Positions 951-64,000 of a stretch of 64,000 nucleotides of DNA are shown piece by piece. Below the pieces are notes generated by a model. It was not told where the DNA came from. It saw nothing but the letters and a program-made list of their open reading frames with translations, and searched no databases. The translations under genes were made by a program, and so were the position numbers. The DNA is from Perna viridis (Eukaryota). Where the stretch lies: NCBI GenBank assembly GCA_037379345.1, contig CM074517.1:42388500-42452499 (forward strand), read 5' to 3'. Position 1 is the stretch's first letter; every line of letters starts with the position of its first letter.

Positions 951-1964
951 ATGGAGAGCGTTGGATTCTGAAGATAACTGTGATAATTTACACTGTGATG
1001 AAGAGGTAACTATAGTATTCTGTTATGAAATCTCGTGTTTTATATAGTTCTTCCCATAAAATGCACAGAAAAAAATGTTTCTCCATTCATAAAAAAATCT
1101 TATATTAAGATGTATTTTTTTAATTATTTTTATGTAAAAAATTATGGAGAAAGAAAGATAAATCCACTTGGTAACACATGAGAATAAAAGTTTGTTAAGG
1201 TCATGGTAGGTGAGGCTATTTATGTGTTTTAGGAATTGACATTAGTCCTCATTATACTAGTTTTTAAAAATGAAGTGAGTACATTAATAAAGAAAGTTCT
1301 GTATTTGAAATGTCTTTTACAGTAATAACCATTTAAAGTACAATTAGCTACTAAGTGGACGATATTTAGAAAGTTAATGGTAAATCATAAACAAATCATT
1401 AATTTTGTATTGCAGGTTGAGGAATTAACAGATGAAGCTTTTCAAACCCGTCATTATTTAAGTGAAGTGCAGGAAAGAAAAAGGTTTTCCAACTTTGTAC
1501 AATATCCCAGCAGAAGAAGTAGAAGCTCTCGAACAGACAGTGGTCCAACATCAGATACTGCTACACAAGATGGCCCTGAGGAGACATTCCGTAGAAGGAG
1601 TAGCTCAGCAGCCTCAATTCGTAGTGCAAGTTTTTCATTAGAGGACAAAGATTTGGAATTTTATGATTCGCACGTGATAGAACCTTGGGGAGAAAGAGCT
1701 TTTCCTCTGTCAGAAGAGGAATACAGCATAATGTTGAAGGACCAACCCCAGTTCATAGAGCCCAGGAGGAGACGCAGTTCAGCACGAGTATCATTATCTG
1801 AATCTTTTGGAGGAAAGACTGAAGAGGAAGGTATGACTGGTGATAACTTGCCAATTTCACCTCTGGGTAGTGTAAGCTCACCTTCTATTGCAGGTGATGA
1901 TCCTAATGACCCTGAATGGTCTGTGGAAGTTGGGGAGAATGGAACATCAAAATCTAGAAGATGA
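951..1964 (+). CDS. KANSL1: KAT8 regulatory NSL complex subunit 1, 3' end (last two coding exons 951-1005 and 1416-1964; gene starts upstream of window)
   Basis: tttcag|exon 951-1005 (WRALDSEDNCDNLHCDEE)|gtaac, then tgcag|exon 1416-1964 (VEELTDEAFQTRHYLSEVQERKRF...EPWGERAFPL...TGA). This matches the PEHE-domain pattern WR...IEDLSDAAF..H...E..ER and the downstream PWE.RTFPL motif of KANSL1. Phases are compatible. Confidence 0.85.
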
Positions 1965-4891
1965 AAATTGTCGGCTTGATAGGAAAGGTATTTTGAAAGT
2001 AAAGCATAATTTGCTTTTATGTAGCAAGGATTGGAACCACCTGGAACTTTGCTCAGTCTTGATTGAGAAGAAGGGAATCCATGGAATGCGCACATTAATG
2101 GGCAGGAACAAAACTGTAGATAGTGCTGGATGAATATTGTACAAGTGCTCTAAAGAAATGTCGGCGATAAGTGCTTTTGTGACTGTCACTAAGTTGACTT
2201 AATGTAGAAATAAAATGTGGTTGGATCTCATAGACTTTATGGCACAAATATTTTTTTTTAGGTTTAATCAAATTGTCGATGGGAAATATGATTTATCATA
2301 TTTCTTAAAAATCATGTTGATCACATCTCTAAAACATAAACATGTACATTGTACTGAATGTGATAGTTTCATGTTGGAAGGTTGTACATGTACATTGTGA
2401 ATTTAAAAAAAAATATTTTGATCATTGACCCTATGGCCTTTGACCTTTTTCATTGCCTTATTTAAAACTCAGTTCTTTTTTTCTGTTTTTTGCCAGTTCA
2501 AGAACGAAATTTTCATTAAGAGAGGTCCAAGATGTTTTGAAAGATATAAGCTTGTCTTTGCCTAGGGTCATATTAGTTAATCTGTCATAGAAATGTGATA
2601 ATTTATTCTTTTGTTTTTGTTTACAAAAATCAGTGACTCACTCTTGGAAAGGTTAAGGAAAAGGAAATAATCGAGGCAATAAAAATCTTACCTACATAAT
2701 TAGGTTGAAAGAAATTTATTAAAATGACATGTTAAATTATTTTGAAATTCTAGTATTGGGTTAATTTCATATATAAATATATATATAATCATTATTGATC
2801 ATGATAATGCTTAAATTTACCTGAACAATACATTTAAATCTTTATTTCTGAATATGATAAACATAATTTTATTTTTCATTGCAATTTCACTTAAAGCTTT
2901 TAGGCAGCATGTTTCCACATTTTAGGTTGGTGCATTTGTAACCATTTATTGAGGAATTTGAAGATATTTTTTATGTGTGCACTCTGTGAGCAAGATGCTT
3001 CTTTCATAATTATTTGAGGGTAGTCATTTACATTTTCTTTAATTGTTAGTTTTTTTAATAATGAAGAAGATAACAATTAAGTAGACTTGTCATAAGAATC
3101 TTGCAAAATGTGATTCATGGTTGGAAAGCCTACATATTTTTATTTTTGATATTTTGTTTAAAATGTCATAGTTAACAGAAAATAACGTGGTTTTTCATAT
3201 AACCCTTGTTCATAGGAGATGAAAAAAATTATGTAGAAAGTACTGTAGAATTTAAAATTAAGGGAGATAACTATAAATGATGCTAAAATACACTAGAAAC
3301 TATCAGATTTTTCATGTGGATTATTTCCTACGAGCACAGATTGGAATGAATAATTATACATTTTATCATATAAACCTATAAAGGTAATTATAACAAAGAT
3401 AAAAATGTAGCCTTTTTTATGTGTAACACATTTTACAGAATTTGCATGATTCTTACAAAGACTGCTACTTAATGAATGTAACATGCATTGACAGAGTTGT
3501 CTGCCCTTGAAATGTTCATTTTCAGTGCATTTCAATGAATTTACAACTATTTATGGATATGGAAAATCTTGTCTTATTTCCTTGATTCTGATGGTGCAAA
3601 TAATCGAATTTAAATTTTCAAAATGGTTGATTTTTCATACTATTTTTCACCCACTGCCTGGTTCTTACAGGGAATGACACTTAATAGATTAATGTAATGT
3701 TCATTGACACATTGGCCTAAATATATGTTTGTTTCCTGTCAACATGTCACTGATTTCTTTGAATCTGCCAACAGTTGCAATAATTTTTTAGACTTGGAGC
3801 ATGCTTAAATTTTTATTTCTGTGAAAAAAGATCTGACAATTGTGATTCCTGTATTTCAGTACCTGTAACTAGTGTTTTCTGAATTGATGTCTTCCGTGCA
3901 TTAGGCATGTTTGACCTTATGACCCATTTTTTTTCACTGAATTACACTTTTTATCATGGAAGCAGGAAGCAAGTGCATGTCCTTTGGTCATTTCTTGTTA
4001 TAAAAAATGTTTTAAATAGATATTGTAGCATAGAAACAAATATTTTTTATCCATATTTTTTGGAAAAAAAATGATACTGTAAAGGATGAAAAGAAATTAA
4101 ATAAATTTAATAGAAAAAAGTCCTCTTCAGTCATGGTGGAATGTTGCTGTTTGACTGAGTCTTATAAGCTTTATGCCAAGCTATATTGGTGTTCAAATAC
4201 ATTATATCAGTTGAGTTATTCATTGAAAAAAAGCAACAAAAAAAAAAGAGATCTATATGTGGAAGACTTAAATTGTGATTTTATGCTAAATGTACTTATA
4301 TTGTAACATTTGAGATACAGTCCTTATCGATATTCACCAATTTTCCTGTCTTAATATGAAGAATAGAATTATAACTGTATTAAATTGTTCCAGGAATGAA
4401 TGATTTTTAACATGATTTTTAAAGGCCGATTATGTTTATTGATTGCAAAGTATTTATGAATTAGTACAGATCTTTAGTTTTTATTTTAATAGATTTTTCT
4501 TTTCGTCATATTTTGGAGAGGGCATTCCTGATGTGCAGTTCTTTGTTTTAGTTTGAAAATATTTTACTGTTTCTTAACAAGAGGAGGTAACTCCAGACCA
4601 ATAATTATGTTCATTGCAGTTATTGTTCTTGGTACAATGTATATTGGTAGTTTGTCTACATGAATGAATATTTGGATCACATTTTTTCTCAATTTAGAAT
4701 CATGTTTATTTTGGTTGCTTTTCACATCATCTGTGTCAAGGAAGGACTTACCTCCCCTGAATCATGTTACACAAATATATATTTGTTATTGTTTTTTTTT
4801 TTTTTTTTTTTTTGTTTATGTTGTATATTATTTGTACAGACAATGTATAGTTGTACAGATGTACATAACTGTTTCTCAGAACTTTGTAAAA

Positions 4892-52379: not shown

Positions 52380-53785
52380 TATGGCAGAGTAATCAAGGGA
52401 ACCAAGGCTCTATCGCTAATCAAAAGAATGTAATCTAGGGACAAAGACCAGACATGGAAAACAGACACACACAACAAAGAACATAAAGTAACTAAAATAA
52501 TACATACAAAGTAACAAAAGCAAATGAGCAAATCGGACTCCACTAAAAACTGGGAGCATGGACCAGGTGCACCGGTAGGGTAAGCGTCCTCTGTTTTTCT
52601 AGAAACACCCGCCGAGTTGCTAATAAAAATTCAAGTCCGGGGTAGTCAAAAGAGGAAAGGAAAACTATGACATGTTGAACAAATCAGTTTTCATGGCGCT
52701 GATGGATACACCGTGACCATCCACGAGTTTATGATGACGACCATAAAACTTCAGTAGTGATGACTTAAATCTTGTAGCAACATAACCCTGTTCCAGTAGC
52801 CTACTTGTTGGAAGTCTAGCGCGATACAAAAAGTCTGCGTAGTTTCGTCAAACTCTGGCATAACATATGAGTTGTGAAATGAACACCCCATACGCAGGTG
52901 CCGAAGGGATTTTGCCGCAGATGAAAGGAAAGTTGACAATTCTGAATGAAAAGTCATCACGTTTGTCGTAAAGTTTGGTCAACAGTTTTCCTTTACTATC
53001 GATTTCTAAGTGTAGGTCAAGATATGAGGCTGACTTCACAGTGTCTATAGTATCCTTTATCTCAAGTTCTTTGGGGTAGATGTGATGTATCAAATCCCCG
53101 AAATTAGGATTGTTTTAAGATAATACGTCATCTATATAGCGGAAACTGAGATTAAAGGATCTAGCTATACGATATTCTTCCTTTCGGATCAGATCAGTGA
53201 TAAAGTCAACCTCATAAGAGTGAAGGAATAGGTCTGCAAGTAGAGGAGCACAATTTGTTCCCATTGGAATGCCGACTGTTTGTTGAAAAACACGTCCACC
53301 ACACAGGACAAATGTGTTGTCGATTAAAAATTCCAGCATTTTGTAAACATCTTCTTCTGTATATTTGGAAGATTATTTGGAATTATTTCTAACAAAGTAC
53401 AATGAATCTCTACCAAGAACTATATATTTGTATCTAGGTGTATCATCTTTTTTGGAAAAAGAACGATGTATAATGCTTTTTAAGTCGCAATTTTAACTGA
53501 GTATGGGGAATAGAAGTATACAGTGTTGAAAAATCATAAATTTTAATTCTATGATATTCTGATAATAGTCTTGAACTGATGGTCTCCAGAAGATCTTTCG
53601 AATTTTTCAGGATCCACATTGAATTAATAACACTACAGGAGTAACAAGTGTTGTGGTAGGACTGCACAGCCGTGAGTATAGAAGTTAAAGTGTTGGAAGA
53701 GGTTTGGTGGTACATTTTGCAGACCCAGCTATGTAACGTTGTTTGTATGGATTCTTGTGGAGTTTAGGAATCCATGTTCTAGATC
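52380..53785 (-). mobile_element. Degenerate Penelope-like retroelement (reverse transcriptase and 3' region)
   Basis: Frameshifted RT motifs WIPKLHKNPYKQRYIAGS, YDFSTLYTSIPH, QQTVGIPMGTNCAPLLADLFL, FRYIDDVL, ASYLDL, LYDKRDDF, PAYGVFISQLI. Multiple stops and frameshifts. Confidence 0.88.
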
Positions 53786-54797: not shown

Positions 54798-54809
54798 CAA
54801 GATGGCGGC
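54798..54809 (+). promoter_or_regulatory. YY1 consensus overlapping the ANAPC2 start codon
   Basis: CAAGATGGCGGC, a perfect YY1-type motif containing the ATG at 54802. Confidence 0.5.
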
Positions 54810-57800
54810 AAATGTTGAACTTGTGAATCGAGCTTGGACAGTTATTACCGAAACGTTGACACCAGGAATCAAAAAGGTAAAATAATTGGTATTGTCCTTT
54901 GAATCAGTAGTAAGACACATTCTATTCCCAATGACTTTATTAATCTTGATACTTTACTATTTTTTTGCGTTAAAAAATGATTGTACTATCGAATTATCTC
55001 CCTTGTGGAACCAAATGAAGGAAAACAATTTTTAGGCAAATAGCTTCGCATATTCATAAACTGATGTATAAATTCATACATTATTTTTTCATACGATTAA
55101 TTAACTGCAGCAAATTTTCATTGGTCTTTCAGAAAGTTGGTTTCTCATGACTTAAAAGCTAGTCTGTTCAAAAATGTTTAGCAATCGAGTTTTACAGCTT
55201 GTTTTATGGTATGTGTTTTGTCCATCATTGAAAACCATATTGTGACCTGTAGTAGTTTAATTGTTTGTTGCTTGGATGATAGTCTCATTGGCAATCACAC
55301 CACATCTCCTATTTTTATATTTAGCTACTGTTTAAACTAATCTGAACCCCCAAATTCAACGATTTTCAATAGACCATTTTGTGCTTAATTTCTGACCAGG
55401 CTCAGGTTATGTTTTTATGAGGTAGGTTAATGTTTTCCTGTTAAAGAAATGTTGAAACCTGCTGGGAAACATGTCAGAGTTCTAAAGGGACAGTGTAGCA
55501 TAATTTACCTTGTGGAAGTGCAAACTTAGTCTGCTCAGAAAATTAGTATCAAAGGGTCTAAGTACTTCCGCATGTCATATTATTAAAACTGTTTTCAGAA
55601 TGTTCAGCCTTACATAAGCTCTGAAGTTGAATTTCAAAATGCTGTTGAAATTCTTTGCAAACAAGAACTGGGTCACATCATTGAAGAATGGTTTCTAGAA
55701 ACATTACAGGAAGATCTGCGACAGAAAGTTGGACCAGAGTTTTGGGGCTGTTTCAAAGAAGAATATACATATGCTGACAAGCTTGTGAAAGCTGTAGAAT
55801 ACTTACATAATGTGACAATGGATTATCTCCCTTGTATTCAAAGACTTGAATCCACCACTCAAATAAAAAAATGGAGGAAATCATCCACACTCTTCAACAC
55901 ATCTTCTCTTAATGAATGTTTTATTCTCCTTATGAAATCAACATTATTTTCCCTGTTCCCAAAGTCTTTCCAAGCAGTGGTGAACAAATTTTATTCGGAT
56001 GCTTTTAGAGTTTTTCATCATACAACAACAGACATTGACCAAGGTACATGGGTAGCTTAATATAAAGTTCATTGTACGGCAAAACCTACACTTATTTCCA
56101 GTAGAAAAAGCCTACATAGCTATACAAATTGCAGAATCTTCCAGACATGCCTGAATAATTGTAAAAAAGATATGATTTTTTTTTAAAACTATAGTAATGA
56201 TTGTATGTTTCTCAAATGCAGTTTTTTTTTATTTGAAAGCAAATGATGTTTTCTTTTTCCAAGTGAAGGGACTTAAACAATGTACATTTAAGGAAGTCAT
56301 GTGCTTATGTAATAGATACTAGTTTGACATATTACTTTAAGTGGTACAAATTAAAAACTTTTTATTAAAATCGAATGCATAAATTTGAAACCTCAAACAT
56401 AAATGGCTAGCAGAAATTTTAAAAAAATTTCTATCACTTAGTAATTTTTTAAGACTAACAGTAAATACGTATGTGTAAGTAAAGTTGAAAGTGATTTGTA
56501 TTTTTTTTGCATGTTTTAATTAAAATTTATTTTATTTTACATATGTATGCTCTTGTCTCTATTATAGAAAATGAAGATGAAGAAGAAACCATGTGTAAAG
56601 GCTGTGATCAGGTGTCAGAAAGCTGTGTCTGTCAACAAATCATGTCAGATTTCCATAACATCAACAGAAAATTGTAAGTTACCTGTAAATCTGTGCTGAT
56701 AATGCAGTTAATGCATTTAGTAATAAAATTTTAAAAAAAATGAAAAATCAGAAAACAAAAACAAACATGACAAAAGTGTGCCTCTGCCAAAAAACTATAT
56801 TGAAATCTCTCAAAATTAATTTGATTTATAGTAACATACATGTATGGATGGATGGAAATGCAGACTGTGATATATAATATAATATGTCAATCAAAAGACA
56901 GGCATATATAAAGCTTGATATAATTTTTCTGGTCAAAAATACTTTCCTCTGTAGTTAAAAGGATTGAAGCCATCTGATCAACCAGTAAATCTTGATAATA
57001 AACAATGTAAAAAAATTGAGAAATATAAAATGACAGAAAACTGTTGGCAAAAGTATAACCTCCTCTGGGTGGTTATCTTTAAAAAGTGCCATTCATATTT
57101 TAATCACTTGTTGAGAATGGGTGAAAGCTTTACATGACACTTTTTCATATTTCAGAGATGATATAGGTATTTTGGAGAGAGTGTCAGGTACAGCTGTTAC
57201 AAATATTGTCCACGAAAGAATAAAAACATATGTAGAGAATTCTTGTAAAGGCAACTTTGAAACGTCATACATAGAAATTTTAGAAACAGTAAGTTTTTAA
57301 TCTGGTATCATGCTAGTCAACAGTTTTAAAATTTAATGCCAAACCATACATATAGAAAGAGTAGTTTCTGTTTTAGCAGAATTTGAAATTCAATGTCATC
57401 CTGTTTTCAAAAATCAAGTGATGTCCATCCAGATGATTTTTTTCCTCTAAAATACAAATTGTACTGCATTTTTCTATTGAGAGCCTCACTGTGTTGGCTT
57501 TTGAGCAAGTTTCCTGCCCTGATGTTTGTAGTATGAATATGTTTTATTTATCAAGATCATGTGTGTAAAGTGGTCTCCATCGGAGATCTTTTTATTTATA
57601 ACAAAGTGGGATTTTGAGTTGTATGTTTCATGATGACGTAAACGTGACAAGATTCTTCCAATTGCTTAAAAATGAAGACTTGCTATTGTTGAAAGATTGG
57701 ATGTTGAGAAGAAATGTATGTTTCTTTATTTCAGTGGCTAGAAACCAAAGTGATTGGATGGTTACGTTTGATTTACTCTGGCAACAGAACACATATATAC

Positions 57801-60800
57801 TCAGACTGTATAGATGGTTTTAAGGGGAGATTACTTCATTTTTTGTACGAGTCCTTTGCTAATATACAGATTGACCAGTTGTTTAACATCATAATAGAAT
57901 TTCCAGAGTCTGAGCCTGCAATATTGGATCTGAAGTTTTGTCTTGAGAAGACAGATCTTAGAACTAGACTTGTAATGTCTCTAAAATCTGCATTGGAAAC
58001 AAGATTATTACATCCAGGTATCTAGTATTAATGAATGTCAAATTTTTGTAGCAGTTTGAATTGAAATTCAATGCTAAGTTAGATAAGCTTAGAAAAGATT
58101 TTTTATATTAAAAATGTCACAGACCTTTAGATACTTTAATAGATATTGTCTATCTGTCTGGCAGAATATGTATGTTAAAAGAATAGGGAATTACCTGCAT
58201 AATATTGAAAACTATTGAAAGTATCAATTTAAAGACCAACCTGTTTTATTATACAGAATTCTTCACTTAGACAGGTATCTATGTCATTTATGAATATTTT
58301 ATTTTTGTAGGTGTGAATACTTCGGACATCCTGACTGCTTACATTGCTGCAATTAGAGCATTGAGAGTTTTAGATCCAGCTGGAGTCATTTTAGAGTTGG
58401 TGTGTCACCCAGTTAGGAAATACCTCAGGTAATCCTTGAACTAAGCTGTGTCTTTTTGCTTAATTGATTTATCAAATTTGCAAATCACTCACAATCCTGG
58501 ATCGGAAAATTGAGGGTCTTGGCCCTCGTATCAACCTATTTTGAATCTCTGAATTTGTAGTTCAGTAATAGAGCAAGAGAAATGCCTTATCAGTTGTCCC
58601 ATGCAGGACCAGGTGTTAAAAGAATAGGCCTGCAGCAGCATTAAGCTCGGGGTAAAAGGCGACTAAATAGTGATCAGAACCGTTACTGTGGGCTAGGGTG
58701 CTCTGCCCGCAGAGCAACTGGGGTGTGTGCCCCAGGTGGTGGAATGGGGTACCCCTCGCATGTTGGGATGATCTGGCCATAATATGGAAAACCTGACCAC
58801 AAACCATAGTGGTGCAACATGTTGGGAAAGATGCCACGTTCCCCGCAGGTTAAGGAACCCTTCTGTGGTATTCTATCAGAGTAGGAACCATTGGGCTCAG
58901 CCACAGGAGGCTAAATTGCCCCGCCCTACTCACCTTTCCCTATTTCCAGTGGCAATCAAAATTTGTTGACCTTATTATCCTTGTGCTCCATCCCATTTTT
59001 CGTTTCATCATCGTCATTTCATATTCATCGCCTGAATATTGCTGCTCTGGTGTTGAACCCCAACAATCAATCAATGAACATGTTTTAGTTCAGAATTTTT
59101 TTTCTAGTTCTTGCAGGAGTTATTTACTGTCTGAATTCTTTAAGGGATGAAGAGCAATAACAAAATTACAGAAATTTAAGAAAAGTCAATATGGAAAATC
59201 CCTGTTTTACAAATGACAATATTGATACAGGCATGGTGTGTTAAACCAGGTTTTATAGGGTGCAAAACTTCATGCTTTAATTATGGTTAATTGGTTCTGG
59301 TATGTTGCAATACAAGAAGCCAGCACAAAATTGTCATAAAGCAAAGTAAATAAAACTAGTAGCCAAAACAGTACTGAAGGTATATTTAGGATATTTTATA
59401 GCAATTTGTATTTTTTTTTGAAGACCTTAAATTTGCAGGTTAATAAAATTTACTAAACTGGCATACAAGAATGTGACTTTTATATTATGATACATTAACA
59501 GTTGCTAAATTATGCTTCTGTAGATCGAGAGATGACACAGTACGATGTATTGTATCAAACTTAACAGATGATGGGAGTAGTGAACTGTTAGATGAACTGA
59601 TTAAAGGACAACCTCTACTGTTAGATGAATCAGGTCATAGCGACAATGAGGATGATGATTGGGAGAAATGGATGCCTGATCCTGTTGATGCTGATCCATG
59701 TAAGTTTGTAATATGAACTACAGCTCAGATTTGGGGTTTTCCCCACAAGTTATAAAATTTATGAGCTTTTTATTTCATGCTTCTTGTTGAATTAGTTTTA
59801 TGATTTTAAGAATTTCTTTTTTAAATCTTCTAATCTGAATTTCACTGTTCCATTTCTTTTTTTTTTTAACTCCTGTAAGTCTGCTTCCCATTTAGCTGAT
59901 TGCCTCTTTGTGGCTTCTTAAAATTGTGTCTCTAGTTTACATTTAAAATTACTTAACCAGTTCTGCTCACTTAATATGACAAATGTGGTACATAACCATG
60001 AGCTTTCAGGGTTCTCAATAAGTGCCGGTGACTGGCGATTTTGCCGTCTACTTTGATATTGGCGCCAGCTATTTTGTTGCTAAAAAAATTAAATTGAAAT
60101 AAAAAATGTTTCGTTATTTCACATTTCATACATAAAAATTTGTGTCAGAAACCTTCGATCGTGGTGTTAATTGTAATGTAGATTAGTTTCCTTGATAACT
60201 TAATTTTGTTTTATCGTGGTTGGTAGTACGAATAAACTAACTTTAATTGTGGTTAATTCGGTGCTTTTGTTGTAATGGACATGATCTGTTATATTTTTTA
60301 AACGCAGTACTGATTCCGTATCACGGATTCCGTATGTGGGAAGGTTTAGAATCAATTCAGTGCTCGGTTCAGGACTGAGAGGGCCCTCAATGGTGCCACC
60401 TACTTTTAATTTTCTTCCACCTATTTTAAAACTTATTGAGAACCCTGAGCTTTGTGAAATTTATTCATTGTTTATAGTGTATTGGCATAACTTCAATCTC
60501 TGGGTTTCTGAACCATGTAAAAATCTCTGTATTATTACAGCTACAACATCTAAGAGTCGAAGAGCTTCGGATATTATCAGTATGCTGGTCAACATCTATG
60601 GAAGCAAGGAACTATTTGTGAATGAATATAGGACATTACTTGCAGACAGAATTCTAACTCAGTTTAATTTTGAAATTGAAAAAGAGATCCGTTATTTAGA
60701 ATTGTTGAAACTAAGGTTTGGGGAAACTCAGCTGCATTACTGTGAAGTGATGTTAAAAGATGTTGCAGATTCTAAAAGGTTGAATTCTAGAGTAACAGAG

Positions 60801-63722
60801 GCCAGGAACAAAACTGGAGAAAGAGGGGTAATGTTTGAATTTATGTTTTGGTCCTCAGAATCTATCATCTCTAATAGGTGCATAGCCCCTTTAATTGAAA
60901 TTGCATAAAACAAAAAAACAAAAACAAAACAAAACAAATAGTCTTTCATCATGTCCATAATCAGGGATGTACAACAGCACATTTTAAATGTTCATACTAC
61001 AGCTATTTAGCTGTTTAAACAAAATGTAAAATATCCATGTTAAACTATACAGGTATATTATCCATTTTCAGGAAAAACCTTTTCCATAAAGAAAACCCAA
61101 CTGAATAGATAGGTGTTTTTATGTACCTTTTTTTGTGCGGTTTATTATTTGTATTTTTTTCCCATCCAAATGCAGAAGAGAACATAATACCAGTGTCAAT
61201 GCGTGTATGTGTAGGTCCATCACACTTGACTTTGTGGAATCAACACCTTGGAAATGCTTAATACATTTTTTTTCAGTTTTATAGAATTGTAGTCACCAAT
61301 TGTGTTTGACCATATTGTGCCACCATTTTGACTTGACAAATTTGCAGAAGTTATTGCCCTTCGGGGAATTTGTGTGTGTTACACTAAAGGAACACTTTCT
61401 TGGACCCAACCTCAGAAACTGCTCAACAGATTTTGTTCAAATATTGTAGGATTATTAGTCACTGCATGTAGTTAGTCATATTGTTTCACCATCTTGATTT
61501 GACAAATTGGACTTTGTTTAATTTGAACCTGCTACACTATAGTAAACTTTGGAAACCCCTCAATTGATGTTGTTCAAAATTTGTAGAATTGTTAGTCACC
61601 ATACATTACATGTAGTTGATCATTTTTCAGCACCATTTTTATTCATCAAATTTTACTGGAGTTATGGGACTTTGTTGAAACAAAATGTAAAATATCCATG
61701 TTAAACTATACAGGTATATTAACCATTTTCAGGAAAAACCTTTTCCATAAAGAAAACCCAACTGAATAGATAGGTGTTTTTATGTACCTTTTTTGTGCAG
61801 TTTATTATTTGTATTTTTTCCATGTACATTTTTTTTACATGTAGTTGATCATTTTTCAGCACCATTTTTATTCATCAAATTTTACTGGAGTTATGGGACT
61901 TTGTTGAAAATGAACATGCTACACTATAGGAACATGTAATTGATCATATGGCATGATTTTGATTTTACAAACTTTACAGGAGTTATAAAACTTTTGTGCT
62001 TCAACTTTTTTTATGGCCGCAGAGGACATATGGCTAAGTGTAGCAATCTCATTTAATAAGTAGTATTGATACCAAAGGTGAAAACATCGGGAACTCATCT
62101 GAATGAGAATAATTAAAATCTCCCTGATATACATGTACATGCCAAAATCTATATCATTTATATCAACCCAAAAGTTTAGGGTTGATATGTCATGTGATGC
62201 AGATTTTGACATACCATGTTCATTATATTATATATTTCAAATGTGTAACAAGTAAAGTGCAATAAAAAGTATGCAATCTATGTTTAGGGGTGTGATGTAG
62301 GGTATGCCATATAAGTCTAGGGTGTGATATAAGGTGTGTGATATAGGTCTAGAGATGTGATATATGGTATGTGATATAGTGTAAACAATATAGGTTTAAA
62401 CAATCACTTATAATGCATATAAAAAATTATGTATATTATAATTTATACTGTTAACATTGTATTTGAGGAAACTCAATAGCTATCAGCATTATCAGCAAGC
62501 TTTTATTGCTCCCTAAAACTAAGTCTTTTCTTTAAACCTACATTTATAGTACATGTACATCCTGAATGAATCACAAAATCTGAAAAAAGACATTGAAGTT
62601 TCTGACATGGGAATAAAGATAAATTAGATGAACTCATCTTTATATACTTAGCAAGTTCCTCTGGCATGTTTTGGTAGTTAAACCCATATACATGTAGAGG
62701 CCATTGATTGTAACAACAATTTCATTAAGAATAATTGTAATGTCAAACGTACAAAGAAGTTTTTATCAACGCATTGTTCATTGGCTTTTCAGGAGATAGA
62801 TGTAAATGCTATGGTATTGTCAGCTCAGTTTTGGCCAGCTTTTAGAGAGGAAAAGATAACATTACCAGAAATTATGCAAGAATCGCTGAAAGAATACACA
62901 AAAAAATTTGAGGCTCTAAAGGGAAACCGAACATTGAATTGGAGGCCACATTTAGGTACTGTAAATTGTATCATGTAGACATGATACAATTAACAGGATT
63001 TTTTATCTATATTTTTAGTTTAGTTAGCTGATAGTTCTTAGATGTGCCTTGTTTTCTTTTAGTACAGGAATCTTTAAGCATCAGGCAAAATTGAAAAAAA
63101 AGAATCATGCTCAGAAAAAACTCCATCTAATTTGACAATTTGAACACATAGTTTATGGTCTGTTGAAGACAAATTGTTAATTCATTTCTCTTGCTAAAGT
63201 TCACATGTTGAAAATGTTAATTTTTTCAAGTGGAGAAATAATTTAAACCATTCATTACTGAAAGAGAAACTATACATTCACGAAAATAAGTTGGTTTATA
63301 GTCACATGTCATATGTGAAGTTTATGTCTTTAGAGAATATTGTATATGATTTTATATTTGTCATTCTAATTTTACGGACTTGGTCAGTATTGATATAGAA
63401 CTGAAGGATAGAACCTTATCCTTCAATGTGTCACCAGTCCTTATCATTCTTATTTTACAGGCTTGGTCAGTATTGATATAGAACTGAAGGATCAAACCTT
63501 ATCCTTCAATGTGTCACCAGTCTTTATCATTCTTATTTTACAGACTTGGTCAGTATTGATATAGAGTTGAAGGATCGAACCTTATCCTTCAATGTGTCAC
63601 CAGTCCTTATCATTCTTATTTTACAGGTTTGGTCAGTATTGATATAGATCTGAAGGATCGAACCTTATCCTTCAATGTGTCACCAGTCCTTGCTGCTATT
63701 ATAATGCAGTTTCAAAAACAAG
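54802..63722 (+). CDS. ANAPC2: Anaphase-promoting complex subunit 2 (cullin-like), exons 1-10; 3' end beyond window
   Basis: GT-AG exons with consistent phases: 54802-54876, 55599-56043, 56568-56673, 57156-57288, 57735-58017, 58311-58428, 59524-59699, 60541-60827, 62793-62955, 63627-63722. Diagnostic APC2 peptides: LFNIIIEFPESEPAILDLKFCL, LETRLLHPGVNTSDIL, WMPDPVDADP, DIISMLVNIYGSKELFVNEYRTLLADR, ELLKLRFGE, CEVMLKDVADSKR, LSAQFWP, KGNRTLNWRPHLGLV. Confidence 0.96.
55215..55320 (+). mobile_element. Short fragment of the same abundant repeat family as 18643 and 29745
   Basis: GTCTCATTGGCAATCACACCACATCTCCTATTTTTATA is near-identical to 30026-30060. Confidence 0.65.
58590..59075 (+). mobile_element. 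GC-rich SINE-like retroposon with (CAAT)n tail in ANAPC2 intron 6
   Basis: Abrupt GC rise, internal hairpins, and a 3' end GGTGTTGAACCCCAA-CAAT-CAAT-CAAT typical of LINE-mobilised SINE tails. No clear tRNA head. Confidence 0.65.
60007..60447. mobile_element. MITE, 441 bp, 17-bp perfect TIRs, 6-bp TSD
   Basis: TIR CAGGGTTCTCAATAAGT at 60007-60023 and its reverse complement at 60431-60447. AGCTTT duplicated at 60001-60006 and 60448-60453. Confidence 0.92.
61017..61909. repeat. Recent X...Y-X-Y complex duplication within an older ~160-bp tandem-repeat element
   Basis: 61017-61165 is near-identical to 61678-61823, and 61606-61680 is identical to 61835-61909. Diverged ~160-bp units span 61230-62000. 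Confidence 0.85.
62285..62380. repeat. Degenerate minisatellite (GGTGTGATATA-like units)
   Basis: Several TGTGATATA/GGGTGTGAT units in tandem. Confidence 0.7.
63361..63691 (+). repeat. 83-bp tandem repeat x4 spanning the ANAPC2 intron 9 acceptor and the first ~65 nt of exon 10
   Basis: Acceptor-equivalent positions at 63377 (CGG), 63460 (CAG), 63543 (CAG) and 63626 (CAG), exactly 83 bp apart. The fourth unit continues into the unique exon end. Confidence 0.95.
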
Positions 63723-64000
63723 GTAGATATAAAAAAAAGTGCAGCTTGTTCTTAAAACTATGCAGTTGATGATAAACATCGTCTGTGCACTTAGCCACTA
63801 TTAGTTAAACCTTGAGCCCTGGCTTGTATTCTATTAGCCTGTACGAACCAACTTAATCTCATTTTTCTCCCAGTTCGTCTGGTTTGTTGACTTAAGACAA
63901 ACCACTGGGTATGACTCAATAATGGAACAGGAATCTGTGGTTCAAGTGGTACAAAGTGTATAAAGGAAAGTACTCCAAAGACTAATCAAGGAAACCAAGG

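Follow-up and report, generated by a model that had tools for sequence, protein, structure and literature searches.

A four-copy splice-acceptor array at the intron 9/exon 10 boundary of ANAPC2 in Perna viridis, a probable neutral mirage

The ANAPC2 gene of the mussel Perna viridis raises an unusual question of splice-site choice. In the window analysed here (the whole stretch of 64,000 nt from contig CM074517.1, assembly GCA_037379345.1), four copies of an 83-bp unit span 63361-63692, head-to-tail across the boundary of intron 9 and exon 10. How, then, is a regular mRNA obtained from several copies of the same junction, and do the surplus copies regulate the gene or are they merely tolerated? 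Our main reading, to which we give a probability of about 0.8, is that this is a four-copy duplication of which the RNA examined uses only the last copy, likely because the exon 10 donor is paired with whichever acceptor lies closest to it, while the other copies are likely neutral intron of the type termed a mirage. The array is most likely a tolerated leftover of copying and not a regulatory switch.

Host gene and anatomy of the array

ANAPC2 is an essential gene; its product binds APC11 through the cullin domain and the E2 through the WHB domain. Twelve coding exons were traced, the first ten in the window and the last two past its edge (Table 1). Pfam places the Cullin domain on exons 8 and 9 and the ANAPC2 domain (PF08672) on exon 12, the last, while exons 10 and 11, searched singly, returned no Pfam match (two of the five exons without one). 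A search with exon 9 recovered 49 proteins, the best named of which are ANAPC2 entries of Mytilus edulis at 94-96% identity, as fits a mytilid mussel. The locus is single-copy in the 723-Mb assembly.

Table 1. Features of the ANAPC2 locus. Coordinates are window positions unless prefixed L002.
Feature	Position	Strand	Remarks
ANAPC2 coding exons 1-10	54802..63722	+	from frame tracing, Pfam and homologues, with RNA joints for 9-10 and 10-11
Exon 9, Cullin domain	62793..62955	+	phase-1 donor GT at 62956
Intron 9 as spliced	62956..63626	+	671 nt, contains copies 1-3; GT..AG joint in four of four runs
Sequence upstream of copy 1			original AT-rich intron, kept by no other copy
Copy 1	63361..63443	+	dead acceptor (GG for AG at 63376); A for T at 63368
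Copy 2	63444..63526	+	intact AG at 63459-63460, no use seen; polymorphic site 63507
Copy 3	63527..63609	+	intact AG at 63542-63543, no use seen; Gly to Asp at junction codon
Copy 4	63610..63692	+	used acceptor, AG at 63625-63626, plus first 66 nt of exon 10
Exon 10	63627..63722	+	96 nt; donor GT at 63723
ANAPC2 exons 11 and 12	L002:1319-1548, L002:4036-4245		past window edge

The surroundings contain another gene and several dispersed repeats. A dynein heavy chain gene occupies about 8200-44200 on the minus strand, divergent from ANAPC2, with Pfam matches to DHC_N1, DHC_N2, AAA, stalk and C-terminal domains in 19 of the 43 ORFs scanned, and a plus-strand ORF at 1329-1961 shows a weak PEHE domain match (E 7e-7, under the curated cut-off). 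Intron 8 of ANAPC2 carries recent non-tandem duplications within 61012-61909 (122 nt at 98% with a spacing of 661; 75 nt at 100% with a spacing of 229). By eye, one interspersed repeat is copied in introns 6 and 11 (58600-59080; L002 about 1790-3240), and the intron 11 copy is split by a second element that also occurs in intron 7 (about 59990-60450). A repeat in intron 10 (L001:2177-2286, window about 63976-64085) is covered thousands-fold by RNA from either strand in every run, with many go-back joints; similar sequence lies near 52400-52530.

Tandem Repeats Finder describes the array at 63361-63691 with a period of 83, 4.0 copies, 93% matches, no indels and a score of 585, the highest among its nine rows in the window. 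Together with alignment of the copies, this upholds the arrangement and coordinates given in the initial annotation. Each unit joins the last 17 nt of intron 9 to the first 66 nt of exon 10. Identity between copies is 93-95%, with 10 variable positions in the unit and 4-6 differences in 82 between any two copies. The proposal that the acceptor of copy 1 is dead was correct: it ends in ACGG, with GG in place of AG, whereas copies 2-4 share one 17-mer ending in ACAG. The accompanying description of acceptors 2-4 as equal stands for this 17-mer but not in full. Acceptors 2 and 4, which lie 166 nt apart, agree over 51 nt (50 nt up to the AG and exon base +1), whereas the match of acceptor 3 to both is limited to 20 nt and its +1 base is a different one. 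Copy 4 alone has T at +2, which gives it an AG/GT context against AG/GC and AG/AC at the upstream acceptors. Acceptors 2 and 3 are 76% pyrimidine, on par with real acceptors of ANAPC2, and branch-point-like motifs at -43 and -18 are common to acceptors 2-4. The GC content upstream of copy 1 is 19%, against 40-42% at the other copies.

Contigs of four DNA samples from three studies (X1, X3, X4 and X7) were aligned to 63290-63945 and checked against a 31-mer graph simulated for a four-copy allele; most of the boundaries that the simulation predicts recur in them. Pieces 63432-63491, 63462-63597 and 63598-63680 and both flanks occur in X1, X3 and X4 at similar depth (114-131, 53-59 and 6-9, respectively). 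Taking the copy-specific pieces as roughly 1x, the 49-mer common to several copies reaches roughly 2x (248, 114 and 10.6). A 61-nt contig specific to copy 1, expected by the simulation, is absent from the X1 depth profile and from the pieces listed for the four runs; we infer that graph simplification removed it, because the depths balance only if that piece exists. X7 has no left-flank cover (63290-63412), a gap that proves nothing, and its right flank (63662-63945) stands at 14.8 against 6.6-8.6 within the array, which may reflect low-depth noise or a second haplotype. Joints that skip or repeat one unit were absent among those listed for the four samples, where contigs drop rare alleles and X7 is uneven.

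The array structure is real and not an assembly error. The notion of an artefact could appeal to X1, possibly the assembly's own sample, and to the fact that the array is not bridged by any single contig. Yet X3, X4 and X7, which come from two further studies, also yield the junction contigs specific to single copies, and X3 and X7 carry their own SNP inside copy 2 (63507), so that this notion is scarcely credible. Copy number in further animals, a check raised by the initial annotation, came to four wherever these contigs make the array readable, with no shorter allele listed. Judged on four of the listed samples only, the four-copy array is probably fixed.

Acceptor use and reading frames

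Acceptor use was read from three raw RNA runs of one study (X21, X22 and X23, of which 19-25% each was read) and from a contig set, X11, guessed to be RNA. Alignment was to exons 9-11, and joints were listed from three reads up, with 12 joints beyond those listed. The joint from 62955 to 63627 is supported by 5, 10 and 4 reads in X21, X22 and X23 and by one X11 contig without mismatch. At this low depth, all 19 exon 9 junction reads among those listed lead to acceptor 4, and joints to 63461 or 63544 are absent among the joints listed (at least three reads) in the four RNA sets. The expected skipping of two upstream acceptors is therefore borne out by the 19 listed reads, and the junction mapping envisaged in the initial annotation for 63461, 63544 and 63627 returned only the last of these, in RNA without a known NMD block. 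Normal splicing proceeds to acceptor 4.

Read depth provides a further line of evidence. The segment 63557-63622, obligatory in both upstream isoforms, has depth 0 in all four RNA runs, while the bin after it has depths of 4.7, 15.2, 4.05 and 42.4; this result is unaffected by the three-read limit, because the depth table is independent of the joint listing. The array genotype of the RNA animals is visible only through cover of copies 1-2 by about one X22 fragment, which is probably unspliced because it also covers the upstream intron. A poison isoform was not seen among the 19 reads, which places its upper bound at 14.6% of steady-state mRNA. NMD could mask some upstream acceptor use, and with an assumed 5-10-fold loss to NMD the bound rises to 46-63% of splicing events.

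Frame tracing confirms the predicted stops and leaves acceptor 4 as the sole open one. From exon 9 (end 62955, phase 1), splicing to 63461 meets TAG at 63562-63564 and splicing to 63544 meets TAG at 63645-63647, whereas 63627 gives open reading through to the donor at 63723. Splicing at the dead position of copy 1 would add 249 nt in frame, yet run into a stop at 63479-63481. Exon 10 would measure 179 or 262 nt from the upstream acceptors, against 96 nt from acceptor 4. Under the NMD junction-distance rule, the premature stops from acceptors 2 and 3 lie well upstream of the last junction, at 388 and 305 nt. Rescue by recursive splicing or micro-exons was considered and rejected: stop-free in-frame paths from acceptor 2 or 3 exist only through 9-nt micro-exons on the weak donor TCA/GTATTG, the better donor TTG/GTCAGT yields 5 nt and is also present in the real exon, and micro-exon joints are absent among the RNA joints listed.

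Acceptor choice and history of the copies

Whatever discriminates acceptors 2 and 4 must lie downstream of the AG, because the two share 50 nt upstream together with pyrimidine content and the branch-like motifs. Everything unique to copy 4 lies on that side, namely its T at +2, the other 30 nt of exon 10 and the closest donor. A difference in branch point was discarded as a discriminator, as the same motifs (-43, -18) precede acceptors 2-4. RNA structure was discarded as well, as global and local folds disagree; the tract of acceptor 4 is the most open in the global fold (0.71 vs 0.42 and 0.66) and the least open in the local fold (0.023 vs 0.092 and 0.052).

On this analysis, exon definition from the donor at 63723 appears the most likely cause of the choice of acceptor 4. 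Recognition across the exon is probable because both flanking introns are long (671 nt for intron 9 and 596 nt for intron 10). These lengths exceed the threshold of roughly 250 nt at which, according to PMC9225289, human genes switch to exon definition. The same source describes that long flanking introns shift the choice to the nearest site across the exon, so that the 3' site lying upstream is preferred less strongly than usual; in the human data of its section 9, that preference is reduced but not shown to be abolished. Copy 4 alone is followed directly by the rest of exon 10 (30 nt) and its donor, which gives an exon of 96 nt instead of 179 or 262 nt; its AG/GT context may add a small edge. 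Against this explanation, ANAPC2 also has exons of 283, 287 and 445 nt, so that 179 or 262 nt is not excessive in itself.

The preceding and later steps can be sketched along the same lines. A short tandem duplication, probably aided by TTG microhomology, would have been amplified later, either by slippage or through crossing-over between misaligned copies. The triplet TTG stands just before copy 1 and again at the end of copy 4, whereas the other three copies end in TTA; this pattern fits duplication at short microhomology, after which the base at the junction was copied into further units. Transcripts leaking to acceptor 2 or 3 would contain the distant premature stops described above and be removed by NMD. 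The silent copies would now drift, in line with their private changes and the lack of a significant synonymous excess given below.

Two other accounts of the locus keep the array but change what the acceptors do. In one, the array is equally neutral and acceptor 4 wins by local sequence rather than by proximity to the donor, be it the AG/GT context, an enhancer within the final 30 nt of exon 10 or a silencer created where two units meet, comparable to the G-runs of human CBS 844ins68. The confinement of T at +2 to copy 4 fits this account, and in CBS an element created at the junction can decide the choice (PMC1802585). However, other ANAPC2 acceptors function with AA, AG, TG, AT, CT or GA at +1/+2, sequence inspection found the unit free of any run of three or more G, so that the two G-runs brought together between the CBS acceptors have no counterpart here, and folding gives acceptor 4 no consistent edge. 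We regard a decision by local sequence as unlikely.

The other account holds that acceptors 2 and 3 are appreciably used and that their products, destroyed by NMD, set the ANAPC2 level as regulated or dosage-tuning poison acceptors. Both acceptors are indeed intact with a pyrimidine content like that of real ones, their stops obey the junction-distance rule, and the limit set by the RNA reads is a loose one if loss to NMD is taken into account. Against this stand the segment 63557-63622, without reads in four of four runs, and the four DNA samples, for which no copy-number variant is listed. The intact AGs need no selection to explain them, because among about eight private changes the chance that any strikes an AG is only 0.18. 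Moreover, a literature search on NMD and alternative splicing of ANAPC2, judged by titles and the start of abstracts, brought up no such switch. We consider such poison acceptors quite improbable, and the copy-number-tuned NMD isoform suggested earlier found no support: no upstream-acceptor read was seen, and all readable samples have four copies. A bolder combination, in which acceptors 2 and 3 take a large NMD-hidden share of splicing, the fixed mirage sets ANAPC2 output and selection removed the copy 1 acceptor as too strong a competitor, has likewise only a small chance of being correct. Loss of the AG at the only acceptor with native upstream intron hints at selection, a hint that is only suggestive; an AG would be struck by chance with a probability of 0.09 in copy 1 and of 0.18 in any of the silent copies, and selection against this AG was set aside because chance alone gives such a loss 9-18% of the time.

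The initial annotation further proposed that, by unequal crossover, the copies may have alternated as the working start of the exon, which would have left traces of purifying selection. Substitutions were compared with 30 spliced homologues; 19 of the 49 matches, which read into the intron, were left out. Measured against the majority base, private changes number three in copy 1 and two in each of the others, and every copy has a sequence of its own. At +1, copies 1 and 3 both have A, and position 18 alternates A/G/A/G over copies 1-4, which suggests mosaic copying and would suit turn-taking. Copies 1-3 retain Glu where copy 4 has Asp; as all 30 homologues have Glu at this residue, the Asp is best read from the comparison as a later change in the working copy, which predicts Glu in copies 1-3 equally well. 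The Gln of copy 2 occurs in two of the 30 homologues. The junction codon, Gly in 30 of 30, is broken in copies 1 and 3. Three of six exon-part changes in the silent copies are synonymous (P 0.17-0.27), and the most generous count, which adds the synonymous site of copy 4 and the polymorphic site, reaches five of nine (P 0.05-0.11). With this low power, the synonymous excess is not significant and does not support copies taking turns. Nor is there any sign of current turnover, as the copies all differ and no length variant is listed. Alternation of copies as exon start is thus very improbable.

Mirages and other duplicated splice sites

The array is a mirage, a kind of structure that the initial annotation did not recognise although it is already described and named in amphioxus, and human CBS 844ins68 is its two-copy analogue. 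CBS 844ins68 comprises two copies of 68 bp, is polymorphic and consists mostly of intron. Reed and Maniatis reportedly observed in 1986, on artificial beta-globin substrates in vitro, that among duplicated sites the one adjoining an intact exon is used.

In amphioxus, PMC3087553 describes tandem copies of an intron 3' end and an exon 5' part in the globin gene BflGb6, many of them with intact signals, and regular splicing; similar mirages occur in Adh3, troponin C and PGBD5 (PMC3087553, PMC3902484). The ANAPC2 array resembles these, and BflGb6 in particular, in its minisatellite-like junction copies, partly kept signals and normal transcript (PMC3087553, PMC3902484). The head-to-tail unit spans the host intron-exon boundary, the AG is intact in three of four copies, and regular mRNA comes from the terminal, authentic copy, on the low-depth evidence of the 19 listed reads and one contig. 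Differences lie in the host, a mussel instead of amphioxus, and in unit length (83 bp against 150-160 bp), while the unit identity of 93-95% compares with 81-100% in amphioxus, as given in the same sources. Mirages also differ in length between haplotypes, with six and three units in BflGb6 (PMC3087553), whereas no length variant of the ANAPC2 array is listed in four samples. A literature search judged by titles and the start of abstracts found no report of a mirage in any mollusc.

Human genes provide two further parallels. In CBS 844ins68, a 68-bp duplication spanning a junction creates acceptors of identical sequence; splicing favours the distal one and thereby skips the duplication, so that a mutation in the upstream copy of the exon has no effect (PMC2630376, PMC1802585). 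Unlike in the ANAPC2 unit, the distal choice in CBS depends on G-runs (PMC1802585). The 37-bp VNTR in IVS7 of F7 is likewise a boundary minisatellite with identical, functional but silent sites, of which the one attached to the whole exon is used; it lies on the donor side, whereas the ANAPC2 array lies on the acceptor side (PMC1557585).

Within ANAPC2, copies near a junction (at most four mismatches in 24 nt) were found at one of 22 junctions. Two homologous genomic ORFs suggest that the same intron has been affected in other animals. In P0003, the end of exon 9 is repeated in two copies of 23 residues; in P0034, it is repeated in at least four copies of 9 residues that continue in a shifted frame. 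Both are probable donor-side mirages, known from protein sequences only, and they represent two of the 19 intron-reading matches in a search biased towards such repeats. A metagenome scan for intron 9 of relatives yielded two loci: one, from a distant animal, shows no repeat in its 80 nt of intron, and the other is a 15-residue match.

As a probably fixed and probably neutral mirage, the array extends this kind of structure to a mussel and leaves knowledge of splicing unchanged. The array would matter more if the upstream acceptors proved to be heavily used under NMD inhibition. It constitutes a natural control, in which acceptors identical over 51 nt lie 166 nt apart and only the downstream one is seen used. 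As such, it could serve to test exon definition in a molluscan gene, and it can mislead both gene annotation and the alignment of reads.
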